Shown: positions 639 through 30,462, counted from the first letter of the stretch. The stretch is DNA of 64,000 nucleotides from Actinomycetes bacterium (GCA_021785935.1 JAJYOG010000001.1:192743-256742); one strand, 5' to 3'. Notes: generated by a model not told the origin, from the sequence alone. Numbers and translations are program-made.

Positions 639-682
639 TTCACCTCTTTGTAACAAACCATTCACCCGTTATTAACCTGCGC
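639..682 (+). promoter_or_regulatory. PHO-box-like operator A: four 11-nt direct repeat units
   Basis: TTCACCTCTTT GTAACAAACCA TTCACCCGTTA TTAACCTGCGC, exact 11-nt phasing. It ends ~60 nt upstream of the ATG at 744. Same architecture as the sites at 4139, 5333, 6703 and 11938(-). Confidence 0.6.
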
Positions 683-743
683 AGGCAAGCAACCGTCTAG
701 ACTGATTTTCAACCATACCGCTGAAAGCAGAGGAGCTGGCGAC

Positions 744-998
744 ATGAAAACTGCATTCCTTCCGGCTGAGTCCAGCGCAGATTTTTTGGAAGAGATAAGA
801 CGAAGGGTGATGACGGTTATCACTCAGCAGCCGGGCGTTCCCTTTTCCATTTATTTGCTCGCTGAGATGTTAGGGATTCCGCCGCAATTCATCGAAGCAG
901 CATTTATCGATTTTGAGGGACCTGAAGAATCGCCGCATTTTCCGGGAGCATTACTTCATATGTCCCAGATGAGCAAACAGGTTATTTACCTGCCCTGA
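744..998 (+). CDS. Small (84 aa) winged-helix-like protein of unknown function, paralog 1 of 3
   Basis: ORF with AGAGGAG 9 nt upstream of the ATG. Shares QxPGVP...LAxMLG...QxIEAAxxxxEGP...xIYLP with 4241..4486 and 11576..11836(-). Confidence 0.75.
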   Translation: MKTAFLPAESSADFLEEIRRRVMTVITQQPGVPFSIYLLAEMLGIPPQFIEAAFIDFEGPEESPHFPGALLHMSQMSKQVIYLP

Positions 999-1061
999 TA
1001 CTAATCCAGGCGCCGCCCCGAGAAACTGGAGGGCCGCGTCAGCAGAAAGAAGGGAGCGCAT

Positions 1062-1340
1062 ATGGCTCAGTGTCCGGTATGCAAACGCCACGACATTTTC
1101 CGGGAGCAGACCAGCTACCTGAACATAATCGCCGACCGCTTCTATTTCGACTGCCCTCAATGCGGGGCTTTCATCTTGACGTCGCGGACCAGGAGTCTCG
1201 TAATGGATATGCATCCATCCGGCGTCAAAGAACTGCTCGGATGGATATCGGAGCACAACTCCAGCGGTACAGTGCCAATGGTGAGCGAACATTTCGTGGC
1301 GAGGATAATGAGGGGTTCGAAAGAAAAGGTGCTGCGGTAA
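1062..1340 (+). CDS. Zinc-ribbon protein (92 aa), unknown function
   Basis: Two CxxC pairs (CPVC ... CPQC). The stop abuts the ATG of the next gene at 1341. Confidence 0.65.
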   Translation: MAQCPVCKRHDIFREQTSYLNIIADRFYFDCPQCGAFILTSRTRSLVMDMHPSGVKELLGWISEHNSSGTVPMVSEHFVARIMRGSKEKVLR

Positions 1341-1919
1341 ATGCAAAAGATCAGATTAATAGATGCAACCCTTCGCTCAGGCGAGCGGGCTCCGGAAGCG
1401 CCGTACACCGTCAGGCAGAAACTCATATTCGCCAGGTCTCTGGACTTCCTTGGAATCGATTCGATCGAGGTGGGGCAGCATGAGGTCGAAGCGGCGCTCG
1501 AAACGGGAATCGGCAGAATCGCAGTCTCCCTGGGATCAATCGGACTGCATCCGGTAAGCCTCGTCCGGGCTGCCCTGCGGGTTAATAGCCTGGTCAAACA
1601 GATCACCGATAGCGGCCGAAGGGTCCGTTTTTCCGTAGAAGATGCTACCCGGGCCAACATGAATGTGCTGATCGAGCTTTGTCTGGCTGCTATAGGGGCA
1701 GGCGCTGACTACATCCACGTGATGGTGAACGGACTTGGAAAACGGACCTATATAACTCCGCTTCGCAATCTGGCCTTGGCTCTGAAAGTGCAATACGGTA
1801 TCGATACCGTGACTATGCTCAGCAACGACGAGATCTCGCGCATGGTATCGAAGCTTAGCCGCCCATCATCGCCCGATCTCGCGGTCACCGAGATGGAGAG
1901 AGGCAGGGCCAGTGCCTGA
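1341..1919 (+). CDS. Truncated/degenerate HMGL-like (DRE-TIM metallolyase, homocitrate/isopropylmalate synthase-like) protein
   Basis: N-terminus IRLIDATLRSGERAP resembles the IxDTTLRDGEQ signature with substitutions. The later FSVEDATRA and GADYIHVMVNGLGKR resemble EDAxR and tvnGlGERaGN segments. At 192 aa it is far shorter than a full barrel, and I saw no HxH motif. Confidence 0.6.
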   Translation: MQKIRLIDATLRSGERAPEAPYTVRQKLIFARSLDFLGIDSIEVGQHEVEAALETGIGRIAVSLGSIGLHPVSLVRAALRVNSLVKQITDSGRRVRFSVEDATRANMNVLIELCLAAIGAGADYIHVMVNGLGKRTYITPLRNLALALKVQYGIDTVTMLSNDEISRMVSKLSRPSSPDLAVTEMERGRASA

Positions 1920-3381
1920 CCGAATAATCGCTGTGGCCCTTTTCCTCCTGACGCTGCTTTCGCGCCTGCCGTTCATGACGTCGATGCTTTACGCCTGGGA
2001 CTCCGTGCTTTACGCCAGGGCAATCGACCATTTTGACGTCGCTGCACATCAGCCCCAGCCGCCGGGATACATCTTTTATGTGGGGCTGATCTCGTTTTTC
2101 AACTATATTGTCGGCGACAAGAATGCGGCCATGGTCTTGGTCAGCATGATCTCCTCGGCGGCGGCAGTGGCCTGCCTCTATTGGCTGGGAAGAACCATGT
2201 ATAGCCGGCGGGTCGGCTTGCTGGCCTCACTTTTCCTGCTAACCAGCCTGAGTTATTGGGCTCATAGCGAAGTCGCACTCCCTTACACACTGCTCGGATT
2301 ACTCAGTATTCTCGTTGCCATGCTTGTCTACCGGGTATGGAAAGGAAACGCCGGTTACCTGATTCCCGCAGCGGGCGCGCTGGGGTTGGCGTCAGGGTTT
2401 CGCCCAGACCTGCTGTTTTTCCTTTTGCCACTGTTCGCCATTGGACTTTTCGGTATGCCGCGCCGCCGGAGCGTTCTGTCACTGGTCGTTTTGTCCGGCG
2501 CTGTTCTGTGCTGGTACGTGCCAAGTATATTGCTATCGGGTGGTTATCATGCTTATCAGACGGCCTTGTCGCAGCAGAGCGATTACGTTACCCGGAACGC
2601 GACTTTCATGGGTGTTGACGGTATCGGGGCGATTGTTGCGAATCTGGGTGCCATGGCGCATTTTTTCATCTGGGCCGCTTCAGGAGCCCTACCGCTCACG
2701 GCCGTGTTGGTTTATCGGCTGATGTCACGGCGAGATCCCTTCAGGAGAGACAGGCGCTTTCTTTTCCTGGCCGTCTGGGCTGTTCCCAGTGTGTTATTTT
2801 ACATTTTCATCCACCTGGGAGAGCTCGGCTATATCTTCAGTTTTCTGCCGGCTTTCCTGCTGGCGGCGGTTGCCGCGACCGACGGCCTGTTGAGCAAAAT
2901 CATTGTCCGGCCGGAGCACATTAAAGGCTTCCCACTATTTAGTTATTCCCCGCTTCTGCTGGTAGTCCTCAACCTGGCCATGTTCCTGTTCGTCAGCCCG
3001 AAGTTGAGCGCGAGCAGCCTGGCAAACCGGGACGAGATGCTGCGAACGGAAATCAGCGCCATCCGCGAAAATTTCAATCCAGCCTCCACCATGATCGTTG
3101 CCGTGCAGGATGACCAGCAGGTTTCTTATTACCTTCCGGAATTCCGTCATATCAAGCTGGATCCCATGGTCAAGGAAAATGTGACTCAGCCGCTGCCCGC
3201 CGATGTCAAACAGGTCATCATCTTTGACAAGTACCTCGAATCACCCAGGGGAGAAGCCGGGAAGGTCCTGTCGGTCACCCCCGGCCAGTATCTAAGCTAT
3301 ATCACCAGAGAGCCGCGGCAGAAGTCGATTGCGCTTGATTGGCGTAACAAGAGCGTGACCCTTCTAAGCGAGGCTAAATAA
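1912..3381 (+). CDS. GT-C-fold membrane glycosyltransferase-like protein (PMT_2/DUF2723-like, putative mannosyltransferase)
   Basis: 489 aa polytopic protein. The first loop WDSVLYARAIDHF...HQPQPPGYIFYV resembles the xD/E ... HPPGYP loop of ArnT/PMT/DUF2723 families. GTG start overlaps the upstream gene by 8 nt. Confidence 0.75.
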   Translation: MPDRIIAVALFLLTLLSRLPFMTSMLYAWDSVLYARAIDHFDVAAHQPQPPGYIFYVGLISFFNYIVGDKNAAMVLVSMISSAAAVACLYWLGRTMYSRRVGLLASLFLLTSLSYWAHSEVALPYTLLGLLSILVAMLVYRVWKGNAGYLIPAAGALGLASGFRPDLLFFLLPLFAIGLFGMPRRRSVLSLVVLSGAVLCWYVPSILLSGGYHAYQTALSQQSDYVTRNATFMGVDGIGAIVANLGAMAHFFIWAASGALPLTAVLVYRLMSRRDPFRRDRRFLFLAVWAVPSVLFYIFIHLGELGYIFSFLPAFLLAAVAATDGLLSKIIVRPEHIKGFPLFSYSPLLLVVLNLAMFLFVSPKLSASSLANRDEMLRTEISAIRENFNPASTMIVAVQDDQQVSYYLPEFRHIKLDPMVKENVTQPLPADVKQVIIFDKYLESPRGEAGKVLSVTPGQYLSYITREPRQKSIALDWRNKSVTLLSEAK

Positions 3382-3496
3382 TGAATACCGGGTTAAAGAG
3401 GGAGGTGGCTATCGGGTATAGGGAACAGAAGGCAGATGCTGGTCGTTATTAATCAGGGTTCTTTCAATAAATACGGAAACAGGCAGGAGTAAGAAA

Positions 3497-3988
3497 ATGT
3501 CAGATATTTTACGTCCGAACGAACTTCTTTTCACCAACCAGATGCTCACCTCGATCAATGGCGAGTACCTACTTTTCCTGCAGGAGGACGGCAATATGGT
3601 CCTCTATGAGAAAGTGCATCATGAAGATGGAAGCGTCATGCTGGAAGTGACCTGGGCAACCGAGACCAGCGGCGAGAACTCCTGGTATGCCATCATGCAG
3701 GAAGACGGCAATTTCGTACTCTATGATCTGGAAGGAGTCGCACTCTGGCAGACGGACACAATCGGCAAGCCCGGTTCGTTCCTTCAACTCCAAAATGACG
3801 GCAACCTCGTCATTAACGAAATCTCGCATGCCTGGATGGCTGAAAGCGGGGAGGATGAGGATGAGGAGGATGATGCTGGCGGCGCCGAAGCCATCGATCT
3901 GGCGGAGCAGAACCTGGCCCGGCAGGTGGATGAGGCGCTGGCGGGCGACATGCTGGCGTCATCAGCAGCGTTAGACAAGGAAGACTAG
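3497..3988 (+). CDS. Bulb-type (GNA-like, beta-prism II) mannose-binding lectin domain protein with acidic C-terminal tail
   Basis: Three QxDxNxVxY-type motifs: QEDGNMVLY (aa 29-37), QEDGNFVLY (68-76), QNDGNLVIN (99-107). These are followed by an EDEDEEDD tract. No obvious signal peptide. RBS AGGAG upstream. Confidence 0.85.
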   Translation: MSDILRPNELLFTNQMLTSINGEYLLFLQEDGNMVLYEKVHHEDGSVMLEVTWATETSGENSWYAIMQEDGNFVLYDLEGVALWQTDTIGKPGSFLQLQNDGNLVINEISHAWMAESGEDEDEEDDAGGAEAIDLAEQNLARQVDEALAGDMLASSAALDKED

Positions 3989-4051
3989 GACCGCGATTCA
4001 CTTGGTTGAGATCAAGCACAAGCAAATACCTGTCTAACAACGGTATTAAGG

Positions 4052-4086
4052 GCGGAAGCACCCGGGGGCCATCACGCGAGGCCCCC
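4052..4086 (+). terminator. Rho-independent terminator after the lectin gene
   Basis: CCGGGGGCC - 9 nt loop - GGCCCCCGG, followed by CTTTTTTCTT. Confidence 0.8.
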
Positions 4087-4138
4087 GGCTTTTTTCTTCC
4101 CAAGTCTTCCCCCGCTACCGCTACCGCATATCTCGAAG

Positions 4139-4182
4139 TTCACCTGTTTGTAACAACTTGTTCACCTCTTTGTAACCAAACT
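4139..4182 (+). promoter_or_regulatory. PHO-box-like operator B: four 11-nt direct repeat units
   Basis: TTCACCTGTTT GTAACAACTTG TTCACCTCTTT GTAACCAAACT. It ends ~60 nt upstream of the ATG at 4241. Near-identical to operator A. Confidence 0.6.
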
Positions 4183-4240
4183 ATCCGGTTTTGCAGTCAC
4201 AATGAACACGGACGATCATCAAGCGGGAAAGGAGCCTCTC

Positions 4241-4486
4241 ATGATAGTAGCGCAAAGCAAGACCCTGAGTTATTGTTGGGGGGAGCTTAACGACGAGCTT
4301 TATTACATTCTGAAACAACATCCGGGTGTGCCTTATCGCGTCGGCCGGCTGGCCAGGATGCTGGGCAGGAATGAACTTCAGATCGAAGCGGCGTTGGAGG
4401 AGATCGAGGGGCCGGTGGCTTCAACGGACCCGGGCGCTTTTATCCATATATGGCGTTCCACTGGCGAGGCGATCTATCTCCCGTGA
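4241..4486 (+). CDS. Small (81 aa) winged-helix-like protein, paralog 2 of 3
   Basis: ATG at 4241 preceded by GGAAAGGAG; the track ORF starts at 4202 without an RBS. Family motifs QHPGVP, LARMLG, QIEAALEEIEGP, AIYLP. Confidence 0.75.
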   Translation: MIVAQSKTLSYCWGELNDELYYILKQHPGVPYRVGRLARMLGRNELQIEAALEEIEGPVASTDPGAFIHIWRSTGEAIYLP

Positions 4487-4537
4487 ATCCTCCAGTAACT
4501 CTTGTATACCTGAAAAAGCCGCCTCTGTTAGAATCAG

Positions 4538-5269
4538 ATGATGGATAAACACGAAACAAACCCCGCCCGCATCCTTGTCGTCGAGGACGATGAAGCTATC
4601 CGCGAGGCAATTGTCTTCAATCTCAAGAAGATCGGGTACCGATACCTGGTTGCCGCCAACGGGCTGGAGGGACTGAGGGTTCTGCGCCGGGAACATCCCG
4701 ACCTCATGATCCTCGACCTGATGTTGCCGGAGATGGATGGCTGGAAGCTTTGCGAACAGGCGCGCGAGGAAGGCTTCGACCTTCCCATAATTATCAGTAG
4801 CGCCCGCACCAGCGAGTTCGACAAAGTGCAGGGGCTTTCGATAGGCGCTGACGATTACATCACGAAGCCGTTCGGGATGAGCGAGCTCATGGCCCGGGTC
4901 GAAGCTCATCTGCGCAGGCATCGCCAATCCGTGGCCGGATTGGGCAAATCAGAGCCTCTCAGCTTTGGTCGGCTGACCATCGATCCAGAACGGAAAGAAG
5001 CGTTCGGCGAAGGCCGGCCCCTGGGCCTGACCTCGAAGGAATTCGCGGTCCTTTATCTGCTCGCCCGGGAATCGCCCATCGTCATCTCGCGGGAAGATAT
5101 CTACAAGTCAGTTTGGGGCTATGAGATGCTCCATGGCGACCGCTCGGTCGACGTGTTCATCAGAAGGATTCGGAAGAAGCTTGCCCAGGAATTCGGCGGT
5201 CAGACGTTCCTCCAGACCCATTACGGATTCGGCTACAAGTTCGAAATCAAAGAGTCCACGGACATATAA
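4538..5269 (+). CDS. OmpR/PhoB-family response regulator (PhoB/PhoP-like by context)
   Basis: Receiver domain (ILVVEDD, DLMILDLMLPEMDG, KP) plus a winged-helix output domain (LTSKEFAVLYLL ... GFGYKF). It lies next to the pst operon. Confidence 0.9.
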   Translation: MMDKHETNPARILVVEDDEAIREAIVFNLKKIGYRYLVAANGLEGLRVLRREHPDLMILDLMLPEMDGWKLCEQAREEGFDLPIIISSARTSEFDKVQGLSIGADDYITKPFGMSELMARVEAHLRRHRQSVAGLGKSEPLSFGRLTIDPERKEAFGEGRPLGLTSKEFAVLYLLARESPIVISREDIYKSVWGYEMLHGDRSVDVFIRRIRKKLAQEFGGQTFLQTHYGFGYKFEIKESTDI

Positions 5270-5332
5270 TTCTCGGCATGAACGCCGCCACTGACAGGAG
5301 CGGTTTCCCGTTTTCTCTTCGAATCCCCACCG

Positions 5333-5376
5333 TTCATATTTTATTCACAATTTATTTACCACTTGTTAACCTCCGC
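5333..5376 (+). promoter_or_regulatory. PHO-box-like operator C upstream of pstS
   Basis: TTCATATTTTA TTCACAATTTA TTTACCACTTG TTAACCTCCGC, 11-nt phasing. It ends ~69 nt upstream of the pstS start. Confidence 0.6.
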
Positions 5377-5444
5377 CTTTTTCTTGTCTGCTAATGTGAA
5401 CAGGACATTACTGGAAAGGTCAATTCTAAGGAGGACTGATCGGT

Positions 5445-6554
5445 TTGCAAAAAACAGGAATCAGAAAAAGTTTGGTGCTGGCGGCGGCGGCAATTGCCGT
5501 ACTGGCGCTGATAGTGGCGGCAGCCGGTTGCGGGGATAGCGGCAGCTCAACAAGCACCAGCGGTATCGCCGTTCCCAGCGCTTCGCTCACCGGCGCCGGC
5601 GCCACCTTCCCCTTCCCCATCTACTCCAAGTGGTTCGATGAATTCGGCAAGCAGTATCCGCAGGTGAACATCAACTACCAGTCGGTCGGTAGTGGCGCGG
5701 GCATCCAGCAGATAACCGCCCAGACGGTGGATTTCGGCGCCTCTGACGCGGCAATGTCGGACGCCGAACTGGCCAAGGCTCCGGCGGAGCTCTTGCATAT
5801 TCCCACGGTCGCTGGCGCCGTCGTCATCACTTATAACGTCGAGGGCGTAGAGACCGGCCTCAAGCTGACGCCGGACACGCTGTCAAAGATCTTCATGGGA
5901 ACAATCACCAAATGGAACGATCCGGCGCTCAAGGCCGACAACCCTGGCGTGAACTTCCCGGACAAGGACATTGTCACCGTGCACCGCTCCGATGGCAGCG
6001 GCACCACCAACATCTTCACCAGCTATCTCGATACGGTCAGCCCCGACTGGCACAGCCAGGTTGGCAAGGGCAAGGAAGTCAAGTGGCCCAACGGCCTCGG
6101 CGGCAAGGGTAATGAGGGTGTCAGCGGCCAGGTGTCCCAGACCAAGGGCGCCATCGGTTATGTGGAGCTTGCCTACGCCAAGCAGAACAAGCTGCCTTAC
6201 GCCAGCATGAAGAACAAGGCGGGCAACTTCGTGGAGCCTACTGTGGCAAGCACGACCGCCGCGGTCCAGGGCGTGGTCGCGAGCTTGCCGGCGGACCTGC
6301 GCATCAGCCTCGGTAACCCCGACGGCAAAGACGCCTATCCGATCGCCGGCTTCACCTACATCCTGGTCTACAAGAACCAGAAGGACCAGGCCAAAGGCCA
6401 GGCGCTTGTGAGTTTCCTCTGGTGGGCCATCCACGACGGCTCGCGGTACACAGCGGCTCTCGATTATGTGTCACAGCCGCCGGAAATGGTCAAGAAGGTC
6501 GATGACCAGATCCGCAAAATCAACTACAACGGGCAGAGCCTGGCGCCGCAGTAG
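5445..6554 (+). CDS. pstS: Phosphate ABC transporter substrate-binding lipoprotein PstS
   Basis: Signal peptide with lipobox (AAAGC). TGAGATFPxPIYxKW and GSGxG motifs. TTG start with AAGGAGGA upstream. Followed by pstCAB. Confidence 0.92.
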   Translation: MQKTGIRKSLVLAAAAIAVLALIVAAAGCGDSGSSTSTSGIAVPSASLTGAGATFPFPIYSKWFDEFGKQYPQVNINYQSVGSGAGIQQITAQTVDFGASDAAMSDAELAKAPAELLHIPTVAGAVVITYNVEGVETGLKLTPDTLSKIFMGTITKWNDPALKADNPGVNFPDKDIVTVHRSDGSGTTNIFTSYLDTVSPDWHSQVGKGKEVKWPNGLGGKGNEGVSGQVSQTKGAIGYVELAYAKQNKLPYASMKNKAGNFVEPTVASTTAAVQGVVASLPADLRISLGNPDGKDAYPIAGFTYILVYKNQKDQAKGQALVSFLWWAIHDGSRYTAALDYVSQPPEMVKKVDDQIRKINYNGQSLAPQ

Positions 6555-6588
6555 CGCGAATCAGTGCAGACGGCCACTCTCCGTTTCC

Positions 6589-6631
6589 GTCCGCGTGGGA
6601 CATGCCGCCATGGCGCATGTCCCACGCGGAC
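6589..6631 (+). terminator. Strong intercistronic hairpin between pstS and pstC (partial terminator or mRNA stabiliser)
   Basis: 17-bp perfect stem GTCCGCGTGGGACATGC / GCATGTCCCACGCGGAC around a 9-nt loop. No U-tract follows. Confidence 0.5.
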
Positions 6632-6702
6632 TGCTTCAGCTTATCGCAAGGCCATCACAAAGCCCTGCCCCATGGCCGATCTGGCAGGCTGAATTGCGCC
6701 AG

Positions 6703-6746
6703 TTCACAATTCGTTAACAATTCGTTCACCTGCTGTTAACCTGCCG
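6703..6746 (+). promoter_or_regulatory. PHO-box-like operator D upstream of pstC
   Basis: TTCACAATTCG TTAACAATTCG TTCACCTGCTG TTAACCTGCCG, perfect 11-nt phasing, ~105 nt upstream of the pstC ATG. Confidence 0.6.
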
Positions 6747-6851
6747 GTCCGCAAACTTTGATAGCTTGTTTTTAGGCGGATTGGATAGCATGTTCCCACC
6801 CGGATCATCCTTTCTGAACATCCGAATCTTTTTCAGCATGCCCGGAGCCAA

Positions 6852-7829
6852 ATGTCGTCCATAAACAATCTGCGCGATAAGTTTCGTGACGCTTCCCGGC
6901 CCGCACGTGGCCGGCTGGGAGACACTCTTTTCACGGTGATCGCCTTCCTGGCGGCAGCTACGATCATCCTGATCATCACCCTGCTCGTCTACCAGCTGTT
7001 TGAGGGCGCGCTGCCTTCGATAAGGGCGTTCGGAGCCGATTTTTTGTCATCTTCGGAATGGGACCCGGTCAAAGATATTTATGGCGCCCGGGTATTCATC
7101 TACGGAACGATCGTCTCTTCGCTGCTGGCCCTGTTAATGGCGGTTCCGCTCAGTCTCGGCATTGCCATCTACCTTAGCCAGTTTGCCCCCCGCTGGCTGC
7201 GCTCACCGCTGGGATTCATTGTCGAGCTGCTGGCCGCTATCCCCAGTGTTGTTTACGGCCTATGGGGAATATTCGTATTGGCGCCATTCCTGGGTCAAAC
7301 AATTGAGCCTTTTTTCGCCGACCACCTGGGCGGCATACCAATATTCGCCGGCCCGGTCTACGGCGTCGGCCTGTTCGCCGCGGCCGTGGTGCTGGCGATC
7401 ATGATTCTGCCCACGATCTCCGCTATTTCCCGCGAGTCCATGCTCAATGTTTCCAGCGACCAGAAGGAAGCCGCCCAGGCGCTCGGAGCGACCCCCTGGG
7501 AGACGGTGCGCATGTCGGTTCTGCCACTTGCGCGCCCCGGTATCATCGGCGCCATAATTCTGGGACTGGGACGCGCTCTGGGCGAGACCATGGCGGTGAC
7601 CATGATCATAGGCAACAGGCCCGAGATCTCCGCCTCAATTTTCGCGCCCGCCTATACGATTGCCAGCGTCATAGCCAACGAGTTCGCTGAAGTCACGGCC
7701 GGGCTGCACATGGCGGCGCTGGTCGAGCTGGCCTTGATCCTGCTGGTCATCACCTTATTGCTCAACCTGCTCGCGAGGCTGCTGGTTCAGAGAACCGGGA
7801 GCGGAGCACTCAAAAGGAAGCGCTCATGA
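6852..7829 (+). CDS. pstC: Phosphate ABC transporter permease PstC
   Basis: Polytopic permease with an EAAxALGATxWE motif. Operon position. Confidence 0.92.
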   Translation: MSSINNLRDKFRDASRPARGRLGDTLFTVIAFLAAATIILIITLLVYQLFEGALPSIRAFGADFLSSSEWDPVKDIYGARVFIYGTIVSSLLALLMAVPLSLGIAIYLSQFAPRWLRSPLGFIVELLAAIPSVVYGLWGIFVLAPFLGQTIEPFFADHLGGIPIFAGPVYGVGLFAAAVVLAIMILPTISAISRESMLNVSSDQKEAAQALGATPWETVRMSVLPLARPGIIGAIILGLGRALGETMAVTMIIGNRPEISASIFAPAYTIASVIANEFAEVTAGLHMAALVELALILLVITLLLNLLARLLVQRTGSGALKRKRS

Positions 7830-8680
7830 AGGGCGACCTCAACCGCAGTCGCCGCAATCTGACCAGCGGCTTCGCCTATCTGCTTTGTTTGCTGTCAACG
7901 GCAATTGCCTTGATTCCGTTGGGGCTCATCCTTGTGTACGTAATTGTACAGGGTGCTCCGGCTCTGAATCTTGACTTTCTCACGCAACTGCCAAAGCCGG
8001 TGGGTGAGACGGGTGGCGGCATGGGTAACGCCATCGTCGGATCGCTTATGCTCATAGGCATCGCCGCCGCTATCGGTCTGCCGATTGGCGTGCTCGCCGG
8101 TACCTATCTTGCCGAGTTCCGCAGCCCGCGGCTGAGCTGGACTGTAAGGCTGCTGGCGGATATTCTGAGCGGCGTCCCCTCGATCATCATCGGTGTTTTT
8201 GTCTATACATTGCTTGTGCTGACCATGAAGCGTTTCTCGGCGCTGGCTGGTGGAGTAGCTCTGGCGGTGCTTATGTTGCCGACTGTCGCGCGGACGACTG
8301 AGGAGATGCTGCGCATGGTGCCCGATACCCTGCGCGAGGCGTCGCTGGCCCTTGGCATTTCCCGCTGGCGGACAATCGTCAGTATAGTTATTAAAACAGC
8401 CGGTGGCGGCATCATGACCGGGATCATGCTGGCCCTCGCCCGAATCGCCGGCGAGACGGCGCCGCTTCTGTTCACGGCGCTAAACAGCCGCACCTGGCCG
8501 ACCGGCCTCGATAAGCCGGTCGCTTCGTTGCCCGTGCAGATCTATACCTATGCCATAGCCCCGTATGCGGATTGGCATCAGCAGGCCTGGGCCGGTTCCC
8601 TGGTTCTCGTCCTGATGGTACTACTCCTGAGTGTGGGGTCAAAACTCTATTTTGGCAGAAAAATGAGGAGTGTCAGATAA
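7826..8680 (+). CDS. pstA: Phosphate ABC transporter permease PstA
   Basis: Permease with REASLALGISRWRT (EAA loop). 4-nt overlap with pstC. Confidence 0.92.
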   Translation: MKGDLNRSRRNLTSGFAYLLCLLSTAIALIPLGLILVYVIVQGAPALNLDFLTQLPKPVGETGGGMGNAIVGSLMLIGIAAAIGLPIGVLAGTYLAEFRSPRLSWTVRLLADILSGVPSIIIGVFVYTLLVLTMKRFSALAGGVALAVLMLPTVARTTEEMLRMVPDTLREASLALGISRWRTIVSIVIKTAGGGIMTGIMLALARIAGETAPLLFTALNSRTWPTGLDKPVASLPVQIYTYAIAPYADWHQQAWAGSLVLVLMVLLLSVGSKLYFGRKMRSVR

Positions 8681-8683
8681 GCC

Positions 8684-9463
8684 ATGGCTGGATGCATTAC
8701 CACAAAGAATCTCAGCGCTACGTTCGGCGACATCCGGGCGATTGAAGGAATAAGCATCGAGATCACCGCTAATAAAGTTACCGCTCTGATCGGACCGTCT
8801 GGATGCGGGAAATCCACATTCCTGCGCTGCATCAACCGCATGCATGAGCTGGTTCCCGGCGCCAGGACTTCCGGAGAGATAATCTGGGATGGCAGGGATA
8901 TATATGCGCCAGAGGTTGACGCCACCGAGGTCCGGCGTGGCATCGGCATGGTCTTTCAACGGCCTAACCCGTTTCCGCTGATGTCCATCGCCGATAACGT
9001 CAGCGCCGGTTTGCGGCTGGCGGGGATGAGGAAAAACAAGGCCGGGATCGACGAGGCGGTCGAGCGCAGCCTGAAACTGGCTGCGCTCTGGGATGAAGTA
9101 AAAAACAAACTCGACAAACCCGGTGGCAGCCTCTCCGGCGGGCAGCAGCAGCGGCTTTGTATCGCCCGCGCGCTGGCGGTGGAGCCTGATATCATTCTCA
9201 TGGATGAGCCCTGCTCGGCGCTCGATCCCGCTTCAACCCAGAAAATAGAAGACACAATGGACCAATTGAAGGATAATTACACTATTGTCATTGTTACCCA
9301 CAACATGCAGCAAGCTGCCCGGGTATCAGACTTCACCGGTTTTTTGCTAACGCGGGAGACCGGAGAGCCTGGCCGCCTGATCGAATACGGGCCGACCAGC
9401 AAGATATTTACCATGCCGGACCATAAGGAAACTGAAAATTATATTACGGGGAGGTTCGGTTAG
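8684..9463 (+). CDS. pstB: Phosphate ABC transporter ATP-binding protein PstB
   Basis: Walker [10 protein letters not shown], signature LSGGQQQR, Walker B ILMDEP. Confidence 0.95.
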
Positions 9464-10171
9464 ATGACGAGGCAGTCATTTCATGAAGGTTTGAAGCAGC
9501 TGAATTACGAGATTCTGCGCATGGCCAGCCTGGTAGTTGAGGCGGTCGATCTTTCCACGCAGGCGTTACTGACTGGCGACCGCAAACTGGCAAACAGCGT
9601 CATCGCCGGCGACGACGATATCAATGAACTCAGTCTCTGGATCGAAGGTCAGTGCCTCGCCCTCCAGGCGCGGCAGCAGCCGGTAGCAAAAGATCTCAGG
9701 CTTCTGCATGTTTGCCTCCTGGTCAGCCTGCATCTTGAGCGCATCGGTGATCTGGCGGTAAACGTCGCCAAGATAGCCAAGCGTATGGAAAGGACAGAAG
9801 GGGCAGAGCCTTATCTGGAGCTGCTCAGGAAGATGTCCGCCCAGGCCCTGGAAGTACTCCGCCAGGGTATCAAGGCTTTCGCGGATCGTGACGCCGAGGT
9901 GGCAAACAAACTGGAGGAGATTGACGAGCCGATCGACGAAATGTTCAAGGAGATACTTGGCCGCCTGCTGCATCCGAGTGAGGAAGACCAGGAGGTGGCC
10001 TCGTCGGAGTGGGCAACTCACGTGGCGCTTGCGAGCCGTTATATCGAGCGGATCGCCGACCAGGTTGTCGACATGGGCGGACGCGTAGCCTTTCTGGTCA
10101 CCGGCGAGCTTGATGGCAAGTATTTCGACCGTCCGCTGGCGCCGGATATCAAAAATCAGTTTGGGGAGTAA
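9464..10171 (+). CDS. phoU: Phosphate signalling complex protein PhoU
   Basis: Two PhoU repeats (DDDINE..., ERIGD / ERIADQ). Immediately follows pstB. Confidence 0.9.
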   Translation: MTRQSFHEGLKQLNYEILRMASLVVEAVDLSTQALLTGDRKLANSVIAGDDDINELSLWIEGQCLALQARQQPVAKDLRLLHVCLLVSLHLERIGDLAVNVAKIAKRMERTEGAEPYLELLRKMSAQALEVLRQGIKAFADRDAEVANKLEEIDEPIDEMFKEILGRLLHPSEEDQEVASSEWATHVALASRYIERIADQVVDMGGRVAFLVTGELDGKYFDRPLAPDIKNQFGE

Positions 10172-10190
10172 GATCAGTTTGGGGAGTAAA
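10155..10190 (+). repeat. 18-bp tandem duplication spanning the phoU stop codon
   Basis: ATCAGTTTGGGGAGTAAG ATCAGTTTGGGGAGTAAA. Both copies carry an in-frame TAA. Confidence 0.9.
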
Positions 10191-10263
10191 CGGCAAATCC
10201 GAAGCGCCCGGCGCCCGGCAATAATACCCGAATGAATTACAGGGGAGTCTGGCCATAGATACA

Positions 10264-11463
10264 TTGGCAATCATCGCGATCGTGTTGTCGCTGGCGTTGT
10301 TTGGCCTGCTTGTGTTACTCGCGGTTGTTCTCTGGCGCGTTGCCAACGAACGCGAGCGGATCGCGGCGATGCTGGGGTCATCTTCCGGGGAGTCGCTCAA
10401 CGATTCGATTTCGAGGCTGAAGCTAGCCGCGGAAGCAGCAGCCAGCATACCGGAAATTAAAAGCAGCCTCGACCAGCTCGTTACCAACTGCCCGCTGCCC
10501 GTACTAATCCTCGATGAAAGCCTCGTAATCACTGATTTAAGCCCCCGCGCCGAGCTGGAGCTGGATCAACCCCGCAGGCGCCGCGGTCTTCTCGAAGGAT
10601 TGGAAAGCCATGAACTTGAAGACGCAGCCCGGACGGCCATCGCTACGCTCGAGCCGGCAGAGATCGTCGTCAGGCTTTATGCCGCGGGCAGGCGCACATA
10701 CACGGCAAAACTCTTTCCGTTCCAATCAGGCAGGAAAAGAATGTGTCTTCTGTTTATGCAGAGCGCCGCGTCCACGATTGAGTTCGGCGAACTCAGGTCA
10801 CAGTTCGCCGCGACGGTTTCTCATGAATTAAGGACTCCCCTGGCCGGGATCCGCGCCATGGTCGAAACCCTGAAGCATCCCGGCATCGAACCTGATGACC
10901 GCGACCGGTTCCTCGAACGCATCGATCAGGAAACAAATCGCCTCACTCAACTCGTGGATGACATCCTCTTCCTTTCATCGCTGGAATCGGGCGCGGCAAA
11001 CCTGGAGGGCAGCTCCGAACTTCGCCAGGTGATCGATGCGCTAATCGAAAAACTTCAGCCGGTGGCCACGAAATTCGGTGTAACAGTAAAAAACAGCATC
11101 CCTGAAGATCTCGTTATTCCCCTTCCGGAAAGGATGGCCTCGACGGTCTTTTCCAACCTGATGGAGAATTCAATCAAATACAGCGGCCGAAAATCTCACG
11201 TAGAAGTCATCGCATCAAAAGGGGACGGCAAAATAAAAATTCTGGTTACGGACGACGGCATCGGCATCGACGCCGAGCATTTGCCGCATATCTTCGAAAG
11301 GTTTTATCGCGTCGACAAATCCCGCAGCCGGAGACTTGGTGGCACAGGCCTGGGACTATCGATCGTCAAGCACGTAGTGGAAAGCGCCGGCGGGGAAGTG
11401 AAAGCGAACAGCCGGGAGGGCTTTGGCACCGAGCTGGTCGTGGAGTTGCCCCTCAAGTCCTGA
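10264..11463 (+). CDS. phoR: Sensor histidine kinase, PhoR-like by context
   Basis: N-terminal TM helix, H-box ATVSHELRTPL, and N/G boxes (NLMENSIKYS, DDGIGI, GGTGLGLSIV). TTG start. Located directly after phoU. Confidence 0.8.
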   Translation: MAIIAIVLSLALFGLLVLLAVVLWRVANERERIAAMLGSSSGESLNDSISRLKLAAEAAASIPEIKSSLDQLVTNCPLPVLILDESLVITDLSPRAELELDQPRRRRGLLEGLESHELEDAARTAIATLEPAEIVVRLYAAGRRTYTAKLFPFQSGRKRMCLLFMQSAASTIEFGELRSQFAATVSHELRTPLAGIRAMVETLKHPGIEPDDRDRFLERIDQETNRLTQLVDDILFLSSLESGAANLEGSSELRQVIDALIEKLQPVATKFGVTVKNSIPEDLVIPLPERMASTVFSNLMENSIKYSGRKSHVEVIASKGDGKIKILVTDDGIGIDAEHLPHIFERFYRVDKSRSRRLGGTGLGLSIVKHVVESAGGEVKANSREGFGTELVVELPLKS

Positions 11464-11505
11464 AGCGCATCAAATTTTCTCGGAGTATTTTTCTGGACAC
11501 CCAGG

Positions 11506-11532
11506 GGCGGCGTCCGGGAACCGGACGCCGCC
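11506..11532. terminator. Hairpin between convergent genes (kinase and small paralog 3)
   Basis: GGCGGCGTCCGG GAA CCGGACGCCGCC, a 12-bp perfect stem. No clear U-tract. Confidence 0.5.
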
Positions 11533-11575
11533 CGCCGGCCTCGCTGCCGGGCGGGTAACTGAGGTTAAGACGGGG

Positions 11576-11836
11576 CTACGTTATGTAGACCCCCGCATTG
11601 CTGCAGCGGCAGCGATGCACGTAGGCGTCCTGTCCGCCGCCAGCGCTGGTGACCGGCCCCTCGATCGCGAAGAGGGCACGCTCCACCTGTAACGGCGACA
11701 CGCCGGCGATGCTGCCGGCAATGTCATCGACGGACACGGGAACGTTCGGCTGACGCTTCAGGCATTTCAGCACGTCGTTCCGGATCACGTCGAGACAGAC
11801 GGCAGTCCTTGGCGGGATTATCGTGGTTATACTCAT
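11576..11836 (-). CDS. Small (86 aa) winged-helix-like protein, paralog 3 of 3
   Basis: ATG at 11836 preceded by GGAGGTGG; the longer track ORF to 11977 lacks an RBS. Family motifs RQPNVP, QVERALFAIEGP, GVYIT. Confidence 0.7.
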   Translation of the reverse strand: MSITTIIPPRTAVCLDVIRNDVLKCLKRQPNVPVSVDDIAGSIAGVSPLQVERALFAIEGPVTSAGGGQDAYVHRCRCSNAGVYIT

Positions 11837-11905
11837 GTTCCACCTCCTTTCATCATTTTCGAGCGGCATTGTATATCTGTCTGCATGATAGCAACGCGGA
11901 CGTCG

Positions 11906-11938
11906 GCTGAGGTTAAAAGCCGGTGAACGAAATGTGAC
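11906..11938 (-). promoter_or_regulatory. PHO-box-like operator E (minus strand), in the divergent region between paralog 3 and the 11962 gene
   Basis: The minus strand reads GTCACATTTCG TTCACCGGCTT TTAACCTCAGC with 11-nt phasing. It ends ~70 nt upstream of the ATG at 11836. Confidence 0.5.
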
Positions 11939-11961
11939 AAAATAATACCTGGCGAATATAC

Positions 11962-13800
11962 TTGATCTACCAACCAAGACACCGGGTTTCTGTGGATTTC
12001 TTTCTGAGGACCAAATTGAGGCGGGGGTTTTCGCTTGCCGTTGCCTACACGGGATTGACGTTCGCCCTTACCTACCCCCTAATTCTGCATTTCTCGACAT
12101 TTTTTGTCGGTGACTCTGAGGACGGGGCTTCATCGGTATGGGCTGTCTGGTGGATGAAATATTCGCTCATGGATTTACATCAGAGCCCGCTGGCCTGCGA
12201 TTACCTTTTCTATCCCTTTGGTGTCAGTCTGACCTATCATCACATGCCAAAGGTGATGGGTCTGATCAGCATTCCTTTCCAGTACATTTTCGGGCTTACC
12301 GCCGCCTACAATCTTTTATTTGTGGGCACCTTCGTCGCAACAGGGCTGACGACCTACTGGCTTGTGCGCCGGCTAACGGGCGAACGGCTGCCGGCATTTC
12401 TGGCCGGCGCCATCTTTGCCTTCGCGCCGTTCCGGTGGGGTCAACAATCACATATCGCTCTTTTATCAACGATGATGATACCGGTCTATTTCGCGCTCCT
12501 GTTCCAGGGGATGGACGCACTTGCCGAGAGCGGCCGGCGTGCCTGGAAATATTTTGTCCTGGCGGGAGTCGCGTTGGCGATGGCTGCCTACGATACCGAA
12601 CAATACGTAATTTTCCTTTTGCCGCTGACCGCGTTGTTTGCGGTATTTTTTTTCCCACTTCGCTGGAACCGGGAAGAATTTAAAAAATGGTTCCGGCTGC
12701 TGACGGGATTGGGGATCGCTGGTCTCACCGCGGCCCTGTTATATTCCCCGATATTTTTTACCGCTCTCTCGGAGATGAAATCCCAGGGAGACTTTGTCAC
12801 GTTTCCCTTGGGTGTCAGCTGGCCCGGAGCCGATCTTCTCTCCTTTTTTGTGCCGCAGGGAACATTTGCTTTCCTGGGATCGACCTTTGACAAGTTTACC
12901 CAGAGCTTTTCTCCCGCTGAAACAACCTATTTTGGCTGGACGGCGCTGACGCTGGCCGCAATCGGTGTAGTTACCCACGTCAGGAGCAGGAAGGTCTGGT
13001 TCTGGACGGCAACCGCGGTAATCTTTTCAGCCCTGGCGCTGGGCCCGTATCCGATTATCAACGGCAGCGTCCTCAGTATTCGCGGCCCTTACATCCTTAT
13101 CACAAAAATACCTTTTATTAATGAGGGAAGGGCTCCCGGCCGTTTTGCCCTGCTCGCCATGCTGGCCATTGCGGTACTGGCCGGTTACGGCGCCAGCGCC
13201 CTTTTGCGTCAATTCAGGAAAGACAGGAAAGGGCGCATGGCGGCTTCTATCGTGTGTGCTGTCCTGCTACTGGCAGTCTGCGTGGAGTTCAAGCCTTCAG
13301 TGACCTTGACCTCTAACGAATCACCGGATATCTACGAGGAAATCGCCGCTTCCGGCACTCAGGGTTCTGTCATTGATCTGCCGCTGGGATGGGAGAGCGG
13401 CAACCTCACGACCGGCACCGAAAAAACGTTTGTTCAGCTCTACCAGCCAATTCATCAAAAGCCGATGGTCGGCGGTTTTGTCTCGAGAACACCGATGGAA
13501 GTTGTCATGCGCGGCCTGTATACCCCGGTAATTGACTATCTGGTCAAACCGGATCAGCCTGAGCCATCGGCTCCGGATGTGAACCCGGCAGCTATTTCTC
13601 GAGTTATGGACGAGTACCAGATAGCATTCATCGTCGTTCATAAGCTGGGGCCTGAAACAATAGCGCGCGGGACTGACTATCATGTGGATTCCGGCCTCTC
13701 ACCCACGGCTATCAACAATGTTGATAAATATGTCACCACCTGGCTGGGAATGGAAAAATTCGCGGAGACGGAAGACATCGTTGCCTATAGAAGGCGTTAA
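11962..13800 (+). CDS. Large polytopic membrane protein, GT-C-like (uncharacterised); paralog of the gene ending at 587
   Basis: 612 aa with many TM helices and a soluble C-terminal domain homologous to 1..587. Start uncertain (TTG 11962 or GTG 11992). Confidence 0.7.
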   Translation: MIYQPRHRVSVDFFLRTKLRRGFSLAVAYTGLTFALTYPLILHFSTFFVGDSEDGASSVWAVWWMKYSLMDLHQSPLACDYLFYPFGVSLTYHHMPKVMGLISIPFQYIFGLTAAYNLLFVGTFVATGLTTYWLVRRLTGERLPAFLAGAIFAFAPFRWGQQSHIALLSTMMIPVYFALLFQGMDALAESGRRAWKYFVLAGVALAMAAYDTEQYVIFLLPLTALFAVFFFPLRWNREEFKKWFRLLTGLGIAGLTAALLYSPIFFTALSEMKSQGDFVTFPLGVSWPGADLLSFFVPQGTFAFLGSTFDKFTQSFSPAETTYFGWTALTLAAIGVVTHVRSRKVWFWTATAVIFSALALGPYPIINGSVLSIRGPYILITKIPFINEGRAPGRFALLAMLAIAVLAGYGASALLRQFRKDRKGRMAASIVCAVLLLAVCVEFKPSVTLTSNESPDIYEEIAASGTQGSVIDLPLGWESGNLTTGTEKTFVQLYQPIHQKPMVGGFVSRTPMEVVMRGLYTPVIDYLVKPDQPEPSAPDVNPAAISRVMDEYQIAFIVVHKLGPETIARGTDYHVDSGLSPTAINNVDKYVTTWLGMEKFAETEDIVAYRRR

Positions 13801-24389: not shown

Positions 24390-24407
24390 TACGTTGTCCG
24401 TAAAAAA

Positions 24408-24713: not shown

Positions 24714-24716
24714 GGC

Positions 24717-25688: not shown

Positions 25689-25750
25689 GCTGTTTCCGAT
25701 CCTTGATTGATATTGCGGCCTTTCTTCCGAACGCAAAGAAGTTTTCCATA

Positions 25751-28725: not shown

Positions 28726-28750
28726 GTGTCTGACTCAGTTTAAACCAAGA

Positions 28751-30444: not shown

Positions 30445-30462
30445 AGTTTTATCACCTTATCC

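Follow-up and report, generated by a model that had tools for sequence, protein, structure and literature searches.

In actinobacteria, direct repeat units of 11 nt make up the PHO box, and GTTCACC is conserved in them (PMC6988585). In Streptomyces, promoters of this type precede pstS, phoRP and phoU, with at least two units upstream of the pst/pho genes, and a box of this kind also stands before the response-regulator gene (PMC6988585). The locus described here is similar, with 11-nt direct units whose core is near GTTCACC, at least two of them upstream of pst/pho genes, and a response-regulator gene apparently behind such a box. It departs from the actinobacterial PHO-box promoters in the alternation of TTCACC-like and GTAACA-like units and in a fixed (T/G)TAACCT unit placed 15 nt before the -10 hexamer, and from the described Pho regulons in having a small winged-helix gene behind three of its five promoters. 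We know of no counterpart small winged-helix gene in the Pho regulons of Streptomyces, Bacillus or E. coli, and a literature search on such genes in Pho regulons found no report of one.

Two-component connectors such as PmrD (85 aa), IraP, IraM, SafA and MzrA are very small, are induced by a response regulator and bind a regulator or kinase rather than DNA; PmrD is induced by one two-component system and binds a phosphorylated response regulator (PMC3533512). The 81-86 aa proteins of this study match the connectors in size and in their predicted induction by PhoB, a likeness in manner of working only, with no sequence or fold relationship. PmrD, moreover, is not known to be a winged helix. PhoP binds the promoter of the gene for AfsS, a regulator of 63 aa from Streptomyces coelicolor (PMC6988585). 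Like the putative accessory regulators described here, AfsS is small and tied to the phosphate response, and PhoU is an accessory regulator too, a signalling modulator encoded in the pst operon; neither has sequence similarity to our proteins, and the bona fide phoU of the locus is a separate gene at 9464..10171. AfsS is not known to be a winged helix or to be linked to pst genes.

The whole stretch of DNA that was analysed (the window) comprises 64 kb from an Actinomycetes bacterium (GCA_021785935.1). Three ORFs encode the small proteins:

744..998, + strand: gene A, 84-aa acidic (pI 4.7) predicted winged-helix protein, A-type subfamily
4241..4486, + strand: gene B, 81-aa acidic predicted winged-helix protein, B-type
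11576..11836, - strand: gene C, 86-aa near-neutral predicted winged-helix protein, C-type

A preliminary description had reported these ORFs as paralogous, and pairwise BLASTP confirmed it: A and B are 40% identical over 68 aa (E 3e-15), B and C 34% (E 2e-13) and A and C 31% (E 4e-10). Sixteen columns of the A/B/C alignment are invariant, including P30, V32, P33, E58-G59-P60, H72 and Y82. The C-terminal pattern (V/A)IY(L/I)(P/T) given in the same description does not fit C, which ends GVYIT. Orthologs of the ORFs were found in related genomes, those of gene A with 79-88% identity, and the dN/dS values were 0.04-0.09 for A, 0.13-0.38 for B and 0.16-0.26 for C (0.04-0.38 overall, at dS 0.5-1.8). 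In related MAGs the three orthologous subfamilies occur in the same gene order. A, B and C are true paralogs and real genes, and purifying selection acts on all three. No fourth copy was found by the family HMM across the 64 kb window; a tblastn match at 37118..37222 (E 0.03) was weak and without HMM support, and we did not accept it as an extra copy. Longer ORFs at 4202..4486 and 11576..11977 were rejected as gene models because the homologs are 81 and 86 aa long and because GGAGG-type ribosome-binding sites precede the ATGs at 4241 and 11836, the former ORF also because the predicted -10 hexamer extends into its ATG at 4202.

The neighbouring genes are as follows:

1062..1340, + strand: 92-aa CxxC...CxxC zinc-ribbon protein, downstream partner of A-type genes
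4538..5269, + strand: OmpR/PhoB-family response regulator, PhoB/PhoP-like by context (Pfam Response_reg and Trans_reg_C)
5445..6554, + strand: pstS, phosphate-binding protein (NCBIfam TIGR00975, 408 bits, above cut-off)
6852..7829, + strand: pstC (NCBIfam equivalog above cut-off)
7826..8680, + strand: pstA (NCBIfam equivalog above cut-off)
8684..9463, + strand: pstB (NCBIfam equivalog above cut-off)
9464..10171, + strand: phoU (NCBIfam TIGR02135, 173.6 bits, above cut-off)
10264..11463, + strand: PhoR/PnpS-like sensor histidine kinase (Pfam HisKA and HATPase_c)

The response regulator scored 191 and 187 bits against the NCBIfam PhoB models and did not reach their cut-offs of 296 and 270; the best NCBIfam matches of the kinase were PnpS and PhoR, both under cut-off. 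An orthologous regulator adjoins family or pst genes at eight other loci (L002, L003, L004, L007, L009, L012, L014 and L015). The suggested co-occurrence with pst/pho genes was borne out by gene neighbourhood, as family members lie in or beside pstSCAB-phoU-phoR/phoB at 13 of 13 loci with readable context, in ten distinct arrangements.

B is predicted to be the first cistron of the phoB-like operon; B is separated from the response-regulator gene by 50-70 nt in the window and in L009, L012 and L007, and in the window this gap contains neither a PHO array nor a terminator-like site. A is predicted to lead a Zn-ribbon/HMGL/(glycosyltransferase)/lectin operon, and the zinc-ribbon gene at 1062..1340 is probably in one operon with it. 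A homolog of the zinc-ribbon protein (38% identical) lies directly 3' of the A-type gene in L002, and the same position is also filled in L001 and L009-L013; the protein itself had only four database matches. C appears to be monocistronic, with G+C-rich hairpins on its 3' side that face the end of phoR. The Zip-winged-helix synteny of C is shared with the single-copy genome L004, and from synteny we infer that the ancestral single-copy gene has its ortholog in C. C would then be the ancestral copy at the border of the pst-pho locus and A and B later duplicates, B having become the leading cistron of the phoB operon and A that of the Zn-ribbon/HMGL/(glycosyltransferase)/lectin operon.

The window was scanned mechanically for arrays of at least three units [GT]T[ACT]AC with an exact 11-nt period, the expectation being taken from shuffles. 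Exactly five arrays of 3-4 direct 11-nt units were obtained against 0.02 expected; they precede A, B, C, pstS and pstC, and the same scan found none in the remaining 52 kb of the window. These arrays and the -10-like hexamers of the predicted promoters of A, B and C are:

639..682, + strand: PHO-box array of A, four units TTCACCTCTTT GTAACAAACCA TTCACCCGTTA TTAACCTGCGC (periodic-unit scan)
698..703, + strand: -10-like hexamer TAGACT of A, 15 nt past the last PHO unit
4139..4182, + strand: PHO-box array of B and the response-regulator operon, four units TTCACCTGTTT GTAACAACTTG TTCACCTCTTT GTAACCAAACT
4198..4203, + strand: -10-like hexamer CACAAT of B, 15 nt past the last PHO unit
5344..5376, + strand: PHO-box array of pstS, three units
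6703..6746, + strand: PHO-box array of pstC, four units
11885..11890, - strand: -10-like hexamer TATCAT of C, 15 nt past the last PHO unit
11906..11938, - strand: PHO-box array of C, three units GTCACATTTCG TTCACCGGCTT TTAACCTCAGC (periodic-unit scan)

The arrays of A, B and C end 61, 58 and 69 nt upstream of the respective ATGs, in line with the 3-4 unit arrays at similar distance from the start codon that had been noted earlier. The claim that each gene stands behind its own PHO box holds in so far as an array precedes all three, but B most likely shares its array with the response-regulator gene 51 nt farther downstream. The array of A is kept at orthologous positions in L009, L011 and L001, that of B in L009, L012 and L001, and that of C in L009 and L012, there with 4-5 units. 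The TAGACT block of A is conserved in alignment A6, and the -10 region of B is nearly invariant (GTCACAAT in the window, L009 and L012; GTCAGAAT in L001). All five arrays of the window, those of pstS and pstC included, end 15 nt before a -10-like hexamer; across loci 26 of 27 arrays have this spacing of exactly 15 nt, and the promoter-proximal unit is (T/G)TAACCT in 21 of 21 arrays. L009 and L012 have arrays at the five positions seen in the window; L011, a poorer assembly, also has five, the one before C lying farther from a broken gene call. Arrays or near-arrays lie upstream of family genes in L001, L002, L003, L004, L007, L008, L014 and L015. Where dS exceeds 1, conservation in the upstream regions falls mainly on PHO units, -10 hexamer and ribosome-binding site, and footprinting of the A, B and C leaders gave no extra conserved operator-like element or palindrome.

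The promoter design of pstS and pstC thus recurs at the family genes, in related genomes and at distant loci too, which agrees with the proposed role in phosphate starvation and predicts induction. On this sequence evidence we consider it highly probable that A, B and C are members of the Pho regulon. Their promoters would be activator-dependent, acting through 3-4 direct 11-nt PHO units as at pstS and pstC, and at low phosphate the PhoR/PhoB-type system encoded in the locus would turn on all five promoters, which should fire together given their common design.

Searches of sequence databases gave about 45 non-redundant family sequences among 5.8 billion proteins, and all named ones come from uncultured 'Thermoleophilia'/Actinomycetota MAGs. 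That the proteins fit no named family was upheld: A, B and C had no match in Pfam or PHROGs, one negligible match in NCBIfam (C to KdpC, E 0.095, 12.5 bits vs a cut-off of 320) and a best E of 0.5 in the PDB sequence/profile search. When 29 members were scanned singly against Pfam, at most three touched any family, all below gathering scores; the sub-threshold matches were spread over many different wHTH families and included HTH_5 (2e-4), HTH_20 (4e-4) and RuvB_C (2e-4), each with one or two members. A, B and C belong to an undescribed family of single-domain winged-helix proteins of about 85 aa that is restricted to one lineage.

AlphaFold2 models of A (pLDDT 78.3) and C (pLDDT 78.9), made independently, have the topology H1-b1-H2-H3-b2-wing-b3, with DSSP elements H8-28, E34-35, H36-43, H47-53, E61-62, E70-74 and E79-83 in A and H15-28, H36-42, H48-58, E60-62, E71-75 and E82-85 in C. 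In a Foldseek search of the PDB neither model had a significant match (best E 0.03), and the matches were mostly winged-helix domains with TM-scores of 0.5-0.7 and 10-20% sequence identity. The helix-turn-helix plus wing first recognised by eye is therefore also the predicted fold, a minimal winged helix. The N-terminal 10-12 residues are predicted to be disordered, yet they are conserved inside each subfamily.

DNA-binding domains head the Foldseek matches (Zalpha, CovR/OmpR effector domains, MarR/ZitR and Fur). Minimal winged helices (Zalpha of ADAR1/E3L, the Rpa2 WH and the ScpB WH) have their topology and a similar size in common with the family, and Zalpha was matched with TM 0.5-0.67 at E of at least 0.18 (Foldseek). 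The contact residues of ADAR1 Zalpha are a conserved Asn/Tyr in H3 and Pro-Pro-Trp in the wing. By inspection, alignment A3 has no conserved Asn or Tyr in H3 and no Pro-Pro-Trp in the wing; H3 reads x-Q-[IV]-E-x-A-L and the wing H-x-x-R-x-[ST]; unlike Zalpha-like DNA binders, the family lacks, as judged by eye, the expected basic or aromatic contacts in both elements. One-domain wHTH proteins (ArsR/SmtB, MarR and Fur N-domains) share the H1-b1-H2-H3-b2-wing-b3 order and a similar size, but single members alone touched the models of the ArsR/SmtB or MarR type (HTH_5, HTH_20, MarR_2), at E 2e-4 to 0.02 and below gathering scores. In contrast to ArsR and MarR, the family has no flanking dimerisation helices, one helix preceding the helix-turn-helix and the chain ending right after the wing hairpin. 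The effector domain of OmpR/PhoB, beside which the family is encoded, likewise combines a winged helix with a C-terminal hairpin, and the best PDB fold matches of the C-type model include the DNA-binding domains of CovR, OmpR-C, ToxR and SaeR. However, this effector domain has an N-terminal four-stranded sheet, which is missing from the family, where the disordered N-terminus runs straight into H1, and the recognition helix of the family is acidic, not Arg/Lys-rich (0-34% Lys/Arg in H3 columns). PF00486 (Trans_reg_C) matched none of the 29 members, and the family profile, compared by hhalign with the C-terminal domains of local PhoB proteins, gave a probability of 0.7% (E 0.076, 22 columns).

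The best explanation of the whole, which we offer tentatively, is a Pho-regulon winged-helix family of protein-binding modulators. Protein binding is favoured because the helix-turn-helix is acidic and nearly without Lys/Arg. Family members have pI values of 4.2-7.7 and net charges of -10 to +1; Lys/Arg reaches at most 10% in every column of H2 and exceeds 10% in H3 only at columns 52 (34%, mostly C-type) and 47 (17%). H3 has conserved acidic residues (E51 86% acidic, position 56 72%, E58 86%), whereas the putative recognition helix of the PhoB-like regulator, assigned by OmpR/PhoB-family homology (DRSVDVFIRRIRKKL), has 7 Lys/Arg in 15 residues. The conserved disordered N-terminus is typical of a docking peptide. 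The lack of a further conserved operator-like element in the three leaders also speaks for protein binding, PmrD offers a precedent, and the predicted placing of phoB in one operon with B is an indirect hint of binding to a response regulator or kinase. Against protein binding, the wing Arg R75 is present in 21 of 29 sequences, C-type members have Arg residues in H3 (position 52) and in the wing (positions 73 and 75), the best fold matches and the weak sequence matches are to DNA-binding domains, and a winged helix in a bacterial protein mostly points to DNA binding. Binding of another protein without canonical DNA recognition is the mode of action that we favour from sequence and models, as a working proposal. 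The proteins may be small PhoB-induced modulators of the connector type that feed back on PhoB, PhoR or PhoU, feedback rather than cross-connection being suggested because the family genes lie inside the inducing system's own locus; alternatively, they may couple phosphate starvation to neighbouring functions.

The main rival reading, less likely and in our view doubtful, is that the proteins are second-tier transcription factors, induced by PhoB~P and then using H3 and the wing to bind DNA, presumably as dimers of like or unlike subunits. Their targets would be further genes, for instance the adjacent envelope/glycosyltransferase operons, or, as feed-forward tuning, the pst/pho promoters. The predicted fold, the DNA-binding domains among the best fold matches and weak sequence matches, and the conserved residues Q49 (H3), R75 (wing) and K27/R28 (end of H1) would all suit such a role, as would the near-neutral C-type with R52, R73 and R75, and three paralogs could provide different specificities. 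Many ArsR/MarR-type regulators are acidic, and overall acidity does not exclude DNA binding. However, H2 and H3 of the A- and B-types are almost without Lys/Arg, a conserved Glu is central on the exposed face of H3, the net charge falls to -10, there is no dimerisation domain, and the absence of a conserved palindrome or extra operator extends to the leaders of all three genes.

The idea that the proteins bind a small ligand or ion (phosphate, polyphosphate, nucleotide or metal) as starvation sensors or chaperones is improbable. Polar residues conserved at the wing base (H72, R75, S/T77 and E58) would make up the pocket, with a contribution from a His-x-Cys-x-Cys strand in the C-type; H72 is found in 27, R75 in 21 and S/T77 in 27 of 29 sequences, and in the C-type H72-x-C74-x-C76 runs along one face of a beta-strand, with C24 in addition. 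The ancestral copy also adjoins a ZIP metal transporter gene in L004 and L009, but the two are not co-regulated as a unit because a PHO array lies between them. Moreover, the cysteines vary by subfamily (A-type members have none there, single-copy relatives one of two), an 85-aa winged helix has no obvious cavity, and Pfam, NCBIfam and PDB searches found no similarity to known phosphate- or metal-binding motifs. Lastly, that the small ORFs are passengers or leaders without a phosphate role, the PHO boxes serving downstream phoB and the Zn-ribbon/GT operon, would suit the position of B and A as first cistrons of longer predicted operons and the autoregulation of phoB via a PHO box that is the norm in other bacteria, but it is disfavoured by the data and very improbable, as C and the single-copy relatives (L004, L008, L014) have their own PHO-type promoter and are followed by the next promoter (pstS) or a terminator, the protein sequence is under strong purifying selection, the fold is conserved, and the pst-pho linkage outlasts several rearrangements of the locus.

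Our findings suggest that A, B and C belong to the core Pho regulon of an uncultured Actinomycetota lineage. Given their promoters of the pstS kind, they very probably represent new accessory components in the response to phosphate starvation. They would thus place a new orphan family, restricted to uncultured bacteria, within a paradigm regulon.

All three of the 81-86 aa ORFs that the preliminary description had reported as paralogous are present in the window:

744..998, plus strand, gene A, 84 aa
4241..4486, plus strand, gene B, 81 aa
11576..11836, minus strand, gene C, 86 aa

Their paralogy is well above chance level, with BLASTP identities of 40% for A and B (E 3e-15), 34% for B and C (2e-13) and 31% for A and C (4e-10), and 16 columns are invariant in the three-way alignment. 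A family HMM run over the 64-kb window matched A, B and C only; a candidate fourth paralog at 37118..37222 (tblastn E 0.03) was rejected, as the HMM had no match there. Orthologs in related metagenome-assembled genomes (MAGs) gave dN/dS ratios of 0.04-0.38 at dS 0.5-1.8. We conclude from this strong purifying selection that A, B and C are real protein-coding genes, and that the ORFs are kept in related genomes. Longer ORFs (4202..4486 and 11576..11977) were discarded on the basis of homolog lengths and of ribosome-binding site (RBS) and promoter positions. An origin from a phage or mobile element was discarded because there was no PHROG match and the GC content resembles that of the surroundings. 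Elsewhere, the window carries a complete type I-B CRISPR-Cas locus (21427..23590 and 23763..32436) with 30 repeats of 37 nt each (Rfam CRISPR-DR7), adjoined on the minus strand by cas4, cas1, cas6b, cas3, cas5, cas7 and cas8b/TM1802. Its low GC content (0.44-0.48 versus 0.55-0.59 elsewhere) suggests that this locus was horizontally acquired.

Among 5.8 billion proteins, word-seeded profile searching returned 26 and then 29 matches. When 1.84 billion representatives were searched exhaustively with the HMM, 14 proteins of family size (40-100 aa) came up, among them a 40-aa fragment; a few long repeat proteins matched as well, but in the generic helix-turn-helix (HTH) segment only. Named members are all 'hypothetical proteins' from MAGs of uncultured 'Thermoleophilia'/Actinomycetota. 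Genomic context was recovered for 13 loci in ten distinct arrangements, and a search for related loci with the alignment of B-type proteins (the orthologs of B) found at least one GTDB locus.

Arrangement of the winged-helix (wH) genes at related loci (ZnR, zinc-ribbon gene; RR, response regulator; HK, histidine kinase)
L001: A-ZnR-PMT_2-lectin-B
L002: B-type, A-type, ZnR, RR, then convergent HK-PhoU-PstB
L003: RR, then wH, facing HK
L004-L006: single copy between Zip and pstS, then pstSCAB-phoU-phoR
L007: wH, then RR
L008: wH, then PstS-like lipoprotein
L009, L012 (closely related to the window): A-ZnR-HMGL-lectin-B-RR-pstSCAB-phoU-phoR, convergent C-Zip; in L012 an extra LMWPc phosphatase gene between phoR and C
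L010 (short contig), L011 (poorer assembly, split gene calls): consistent with the L009/L012 order
L014: pstS, then wH
L015: wH, then pstCAB-phoU-phoR

In every one of the 13 loci the family gene lies inside or beside the pst-pho locus, which bears out the linkage for which the preliminary description had proposed a gene-neighbourhood analysis. C shares with the single-copy relatives the Zip-wH synteny, the N-terminal motifs and the wing motifs, from which we infer that C is the ancestral copy and that A and B arose later by duplication. Relative to single-copy L004, the three-copy genomes carry the pstS-to-phoR block in inverted orientation (L004 1..20255 versus L009 1..20246). The flanks of the inversion are kept, with SAM_HAT, Se_S_carrier, PAP2, YjbQ and Zip on one side and MgtE-like and Nramp on the other, and the ancestral wH gene remained with the Zip flank.

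In the window, a complete phosphate system sits between B and C:

4538..5269, response regulator gene of the OmpR/PhoB family (phoB)
between B and C, pstS, pstC, pstA, pstB and phoU, all exceeding NCBIfam cut-offs
10264..11463, PhoR/PnpS-like kinase gene (phoR)

We scanned the window mechanically for PHO arrays, defined as at least three [GT]T[ACT]AC units at exact 11-nt spacing. Five arrays were found, compared with 0.02 expected from shuffles, and the remaining 52 kb contained none in the same scan:

639-682, plus strand, array of A
4139-4182, plus strand, array of B
5344-5376, plus strand, array of pstS
6703-6746, plus strand, array of pstC
11938-11906, minus strand, array of C

The distance from the array end to the start codon is 61 nt (A), 58 nt (B) and 69 nt (C). 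Of 27 arrays collected from the window and the related loci, 26 are followed, at a distance of exactly 15 nt from the last unit, by a -10-like hexamer (TAnnnT or CAnAAT). The last unit reads (T/G)TAACCT.. in 21 of 21 arrays, and the family gene in the related loci likewise has an array or near-array of this geometry in front of it. Orthologous upstream regions, at saturated synonymous divergence, retain as their main conserved blocks the PHO units, the -10 hexamer and the RBS. The shared geometry and its conservation strongly suggest that A, B and C are driven by activator-dependent promoters built like those of the genuine pst genes in the locus. The actinobacterial PHO box consists of direct 11-nt repeat units with a conserved GTTCACC to which PhoP dimers bind (PMC6988585), and the units in the window agree with it; the promoter side is thus a lineage variant of a known element. 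Beyond PHO units, -10 hexamer and RBS, no operator-like palindrome was seen in the A, B and C leaders, and an additional autoregulation operator there was therefore discarded. A short block 5' of the A array, TTGTCAAGC, is kept in three relatives though not in the window, and a portion of the C leader shows conservation as well.

The B gene ends 51 nt before the regulator gene, neither a PHO array nor a terminator-like site was found in this gap, and the tight pairing recurs in L009, L012 and L007. The most plausible reading is therefore that a putative autoregulated phoB operon has B as its first cistron. Consequently, the earlier claim that each of the three genes has its own PHO box stood as far as an array precedes each of them, but the promoter of B is most likely shared with phoB. 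The suggested phosphate-starvation induction of the family is likewise predicted from the pst-like PHO promoters and the pst-pho linkage in every readable locus.

The gap between pstS and pstC (6555..6851, ~300 nt) holds its own four-unit array (6703-6746) and -10 hexamer. A separate array with -10 hexamer is also found between these genes in L009, L011 and L012. It thus appears that pstCAB-phoU-phoR is served by a PhoB-dependent promoter of its own instead of depending solely on read-through from pstS.

C stands alone, and G+C-rich hairpins at its 3' side face the end of phoR. Its array overlaps a plus-strand promoter-like site (11934..11962), and thus PhoB might also affect the divergent gene at 11962..13800. 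The window contains two large membrane-protein paralogs with near-identical C-termini (...MEKFEETDEIVAYRR) at 36..587 and 11962..13800 (also 13804..15306), one of which has a weak DUF6541 match. Compared with L009/L012, an insertion comprising the 11962..13800 copy and the next, PD40-like gene separates C from the gene of the ZIP transporter.

Directly after A lies a gene for a 92-aa zinc-ribbon protein (1062..1340; CxxC...CxxC), which accompanies the A-type gene at every locus having one (window, L001, L002, L009-L013). Its product is a candidate direct partner of A. With 4 database matches only, this protein is as lineage-restricted as the wH family, and its homologs were dropped as a functional clue for that reason. 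It is followed by an HMGL-like fragment, a PMT_2 glycosyltransferase gene and a gene for a B-lectin (bulb-type mannose-binding lectin) protein. The HMGL-like ORF (1341..1919) encodes 192 aa in the window versus 296 aa in L009 and L010, ending early where the PMT_2-type membrane glycosyltransferase gene sits (1912..3381). In L001 the glycosyltransferase gene is directly 3' of the zinc-ribbon gene and the HMGL gene is absent. The B-lectin protein (3497..3988) is cytoplasmic-looking with a highly acidic C-terminal tail, and the position of its gene between the glycosyltransferase gene and B is kept in L001, L009, L011 and L012.

AlphaFold2 models of A and C (mean pLDDT 78.3 and 78.9; all five C models 76-79) have the topology H1-b1-H2-H3-b2-wing-b3 of a minimal winged helix, in agreement with the helix-turn-helix plus wing read from the sequence earlier. 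Foldseek searches with these models (PDB and viral models) returned mostly winged-helix domains (Zalpha, MarR/ZitR, GntR, ArsR, Rpa2-WH, ScpB), none of them significant (best E 0.03; TM 0.4-0.7). The C model had additional hits, likewise below significance, to Fur and to CovR/OmpR/ToxR/SaeR effector domains. The latter suggested a descent of the family from the effector domain of PhoB, which we rejected because the hhalign probability was only 0.7%. For A, B and C there was no match in Pfam or PHROGs and one negligible match in NCBIfam, and the best hit of a PDB sequence profile search had E 0.5. A member-by-member Pfam scan (E <= 10) gave scattered sub-threshold matches to many wHTH families. 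As first described, the proteins belong to no recognisable family: within the winged-helix fold class they form an orphan, lineage-restricted family that is new although its fold is known.

The main alternative is that A, B and C are second-tier DNA-binding regulators, the default expectation for this fold, with which the conserved wing Arg75 and Q49 agree, as do the C-type proteins, which are near neutral with R52, R73 and R75. Over the 29 aligned sequences, however, Lys/Arg make up at most 10% of every H2 column and exceed 10% in H3 only at columns 52 (34%, mostly C-type) and 47 (17%). The exposed H3 face is conserved acidic at E51 (86% acidic), position 56 (72%) and E58 (86%), and whole-protein net charge ranges from -10 to +1 (pI 4.2-7.7). 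In the neighbouring PhoB-like regulator, DRSVDVFIRRIRKKL, which we take to be the recognition helix by homology with OmpR/PhoB-family domains, has 7 Lys/Arg in 15 residues. The acidic HTH thus tilts the odds away from classical DNA binding. The subfamily specificity of the Cys residues makes ligand or metal binding a less likely role, and a family-wide H-x-C-x-C metal site was rejected on the same ground. That the small ORFs are pure passengers is contradicted by stand-alone copies with their own PHO promoter and by purifying selection on the proteins.

The first 10-12 residues are predicted to be disordered, yet are conserved inside each subfamily, and in this may resemble docking peptides. 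Together with the acidic HTH and the leaders devoid of an operator-like palindrome, this leads us to favour protein binding, with A, B and C acting as PhoB-induced modulators of the 'connector' type. Upon phosphate limitation, the PhoR/PhoB-type system would very probably activate the five promoters of the same design, three of which would yield the A, B and C proteins. These could then bind PhoB, PhoR or PhoU, or neighbouring gene products such as the zinc-ribbon protein. PmrD, an 85-aa protein induced by PhoP/PhoQ, binds phospho-PmrA (PMC3533512); the likeness is one of logic, not of sequence. In a bolder version, which we consider improbable, the winged-helix scaffold would no longer bind DNA, and the proteins would form a hitherto unrecognised class of feedback modulators induced by PhoB. 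Their acidic H2-H3 face would mimic DNA as a decoy, or offer a docking site, for the Arg/Lys-rich PhoB effector domain, or for PhoR or PhoU, and the wH protein would control either the gain of the phosphate-starvation response or its shut-off. The triplicated copies would be wired to phoB, an envelope-glycosylation operon and the border of the pst locus.

The Pho regulon is among the best-studied paradigms of bacterial signalling, with a described core of PstSCAB, PhoU, PhoR and PhoB/PhoP. To our knowledge, no winged-helix component of this sort has been described in it, and a literature search on PHO-box-linked winged-helix hypothetical proteins turned up nothing relevant. Our data suggest that the locus has a further Pho component, a tiny winged-helix protein, tightly linked and predicted to be co-regulated, which is conserved wherever present and has three copies in this lineage. 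A PHO-box promoter grammar is now defined for a poorly known, uncultured actinobacterial lineage, and about 45 'hypothetical proteins' receive the testable annotation 'Pho-regulon small wH protein'. The reach of the finding is limited by the narrow taxonomic range and uncultured hosts; what it offers is a clean prediction, open to test, that the Pho regulon has a new accessory protein, one confined to uncultured bacteria. If PhoB, PhoR or PhoU is modulated, the family would add a feedback element of a new kind to phosphate sensing and would exemplify a DNA-binding fold re-used for protein binding.
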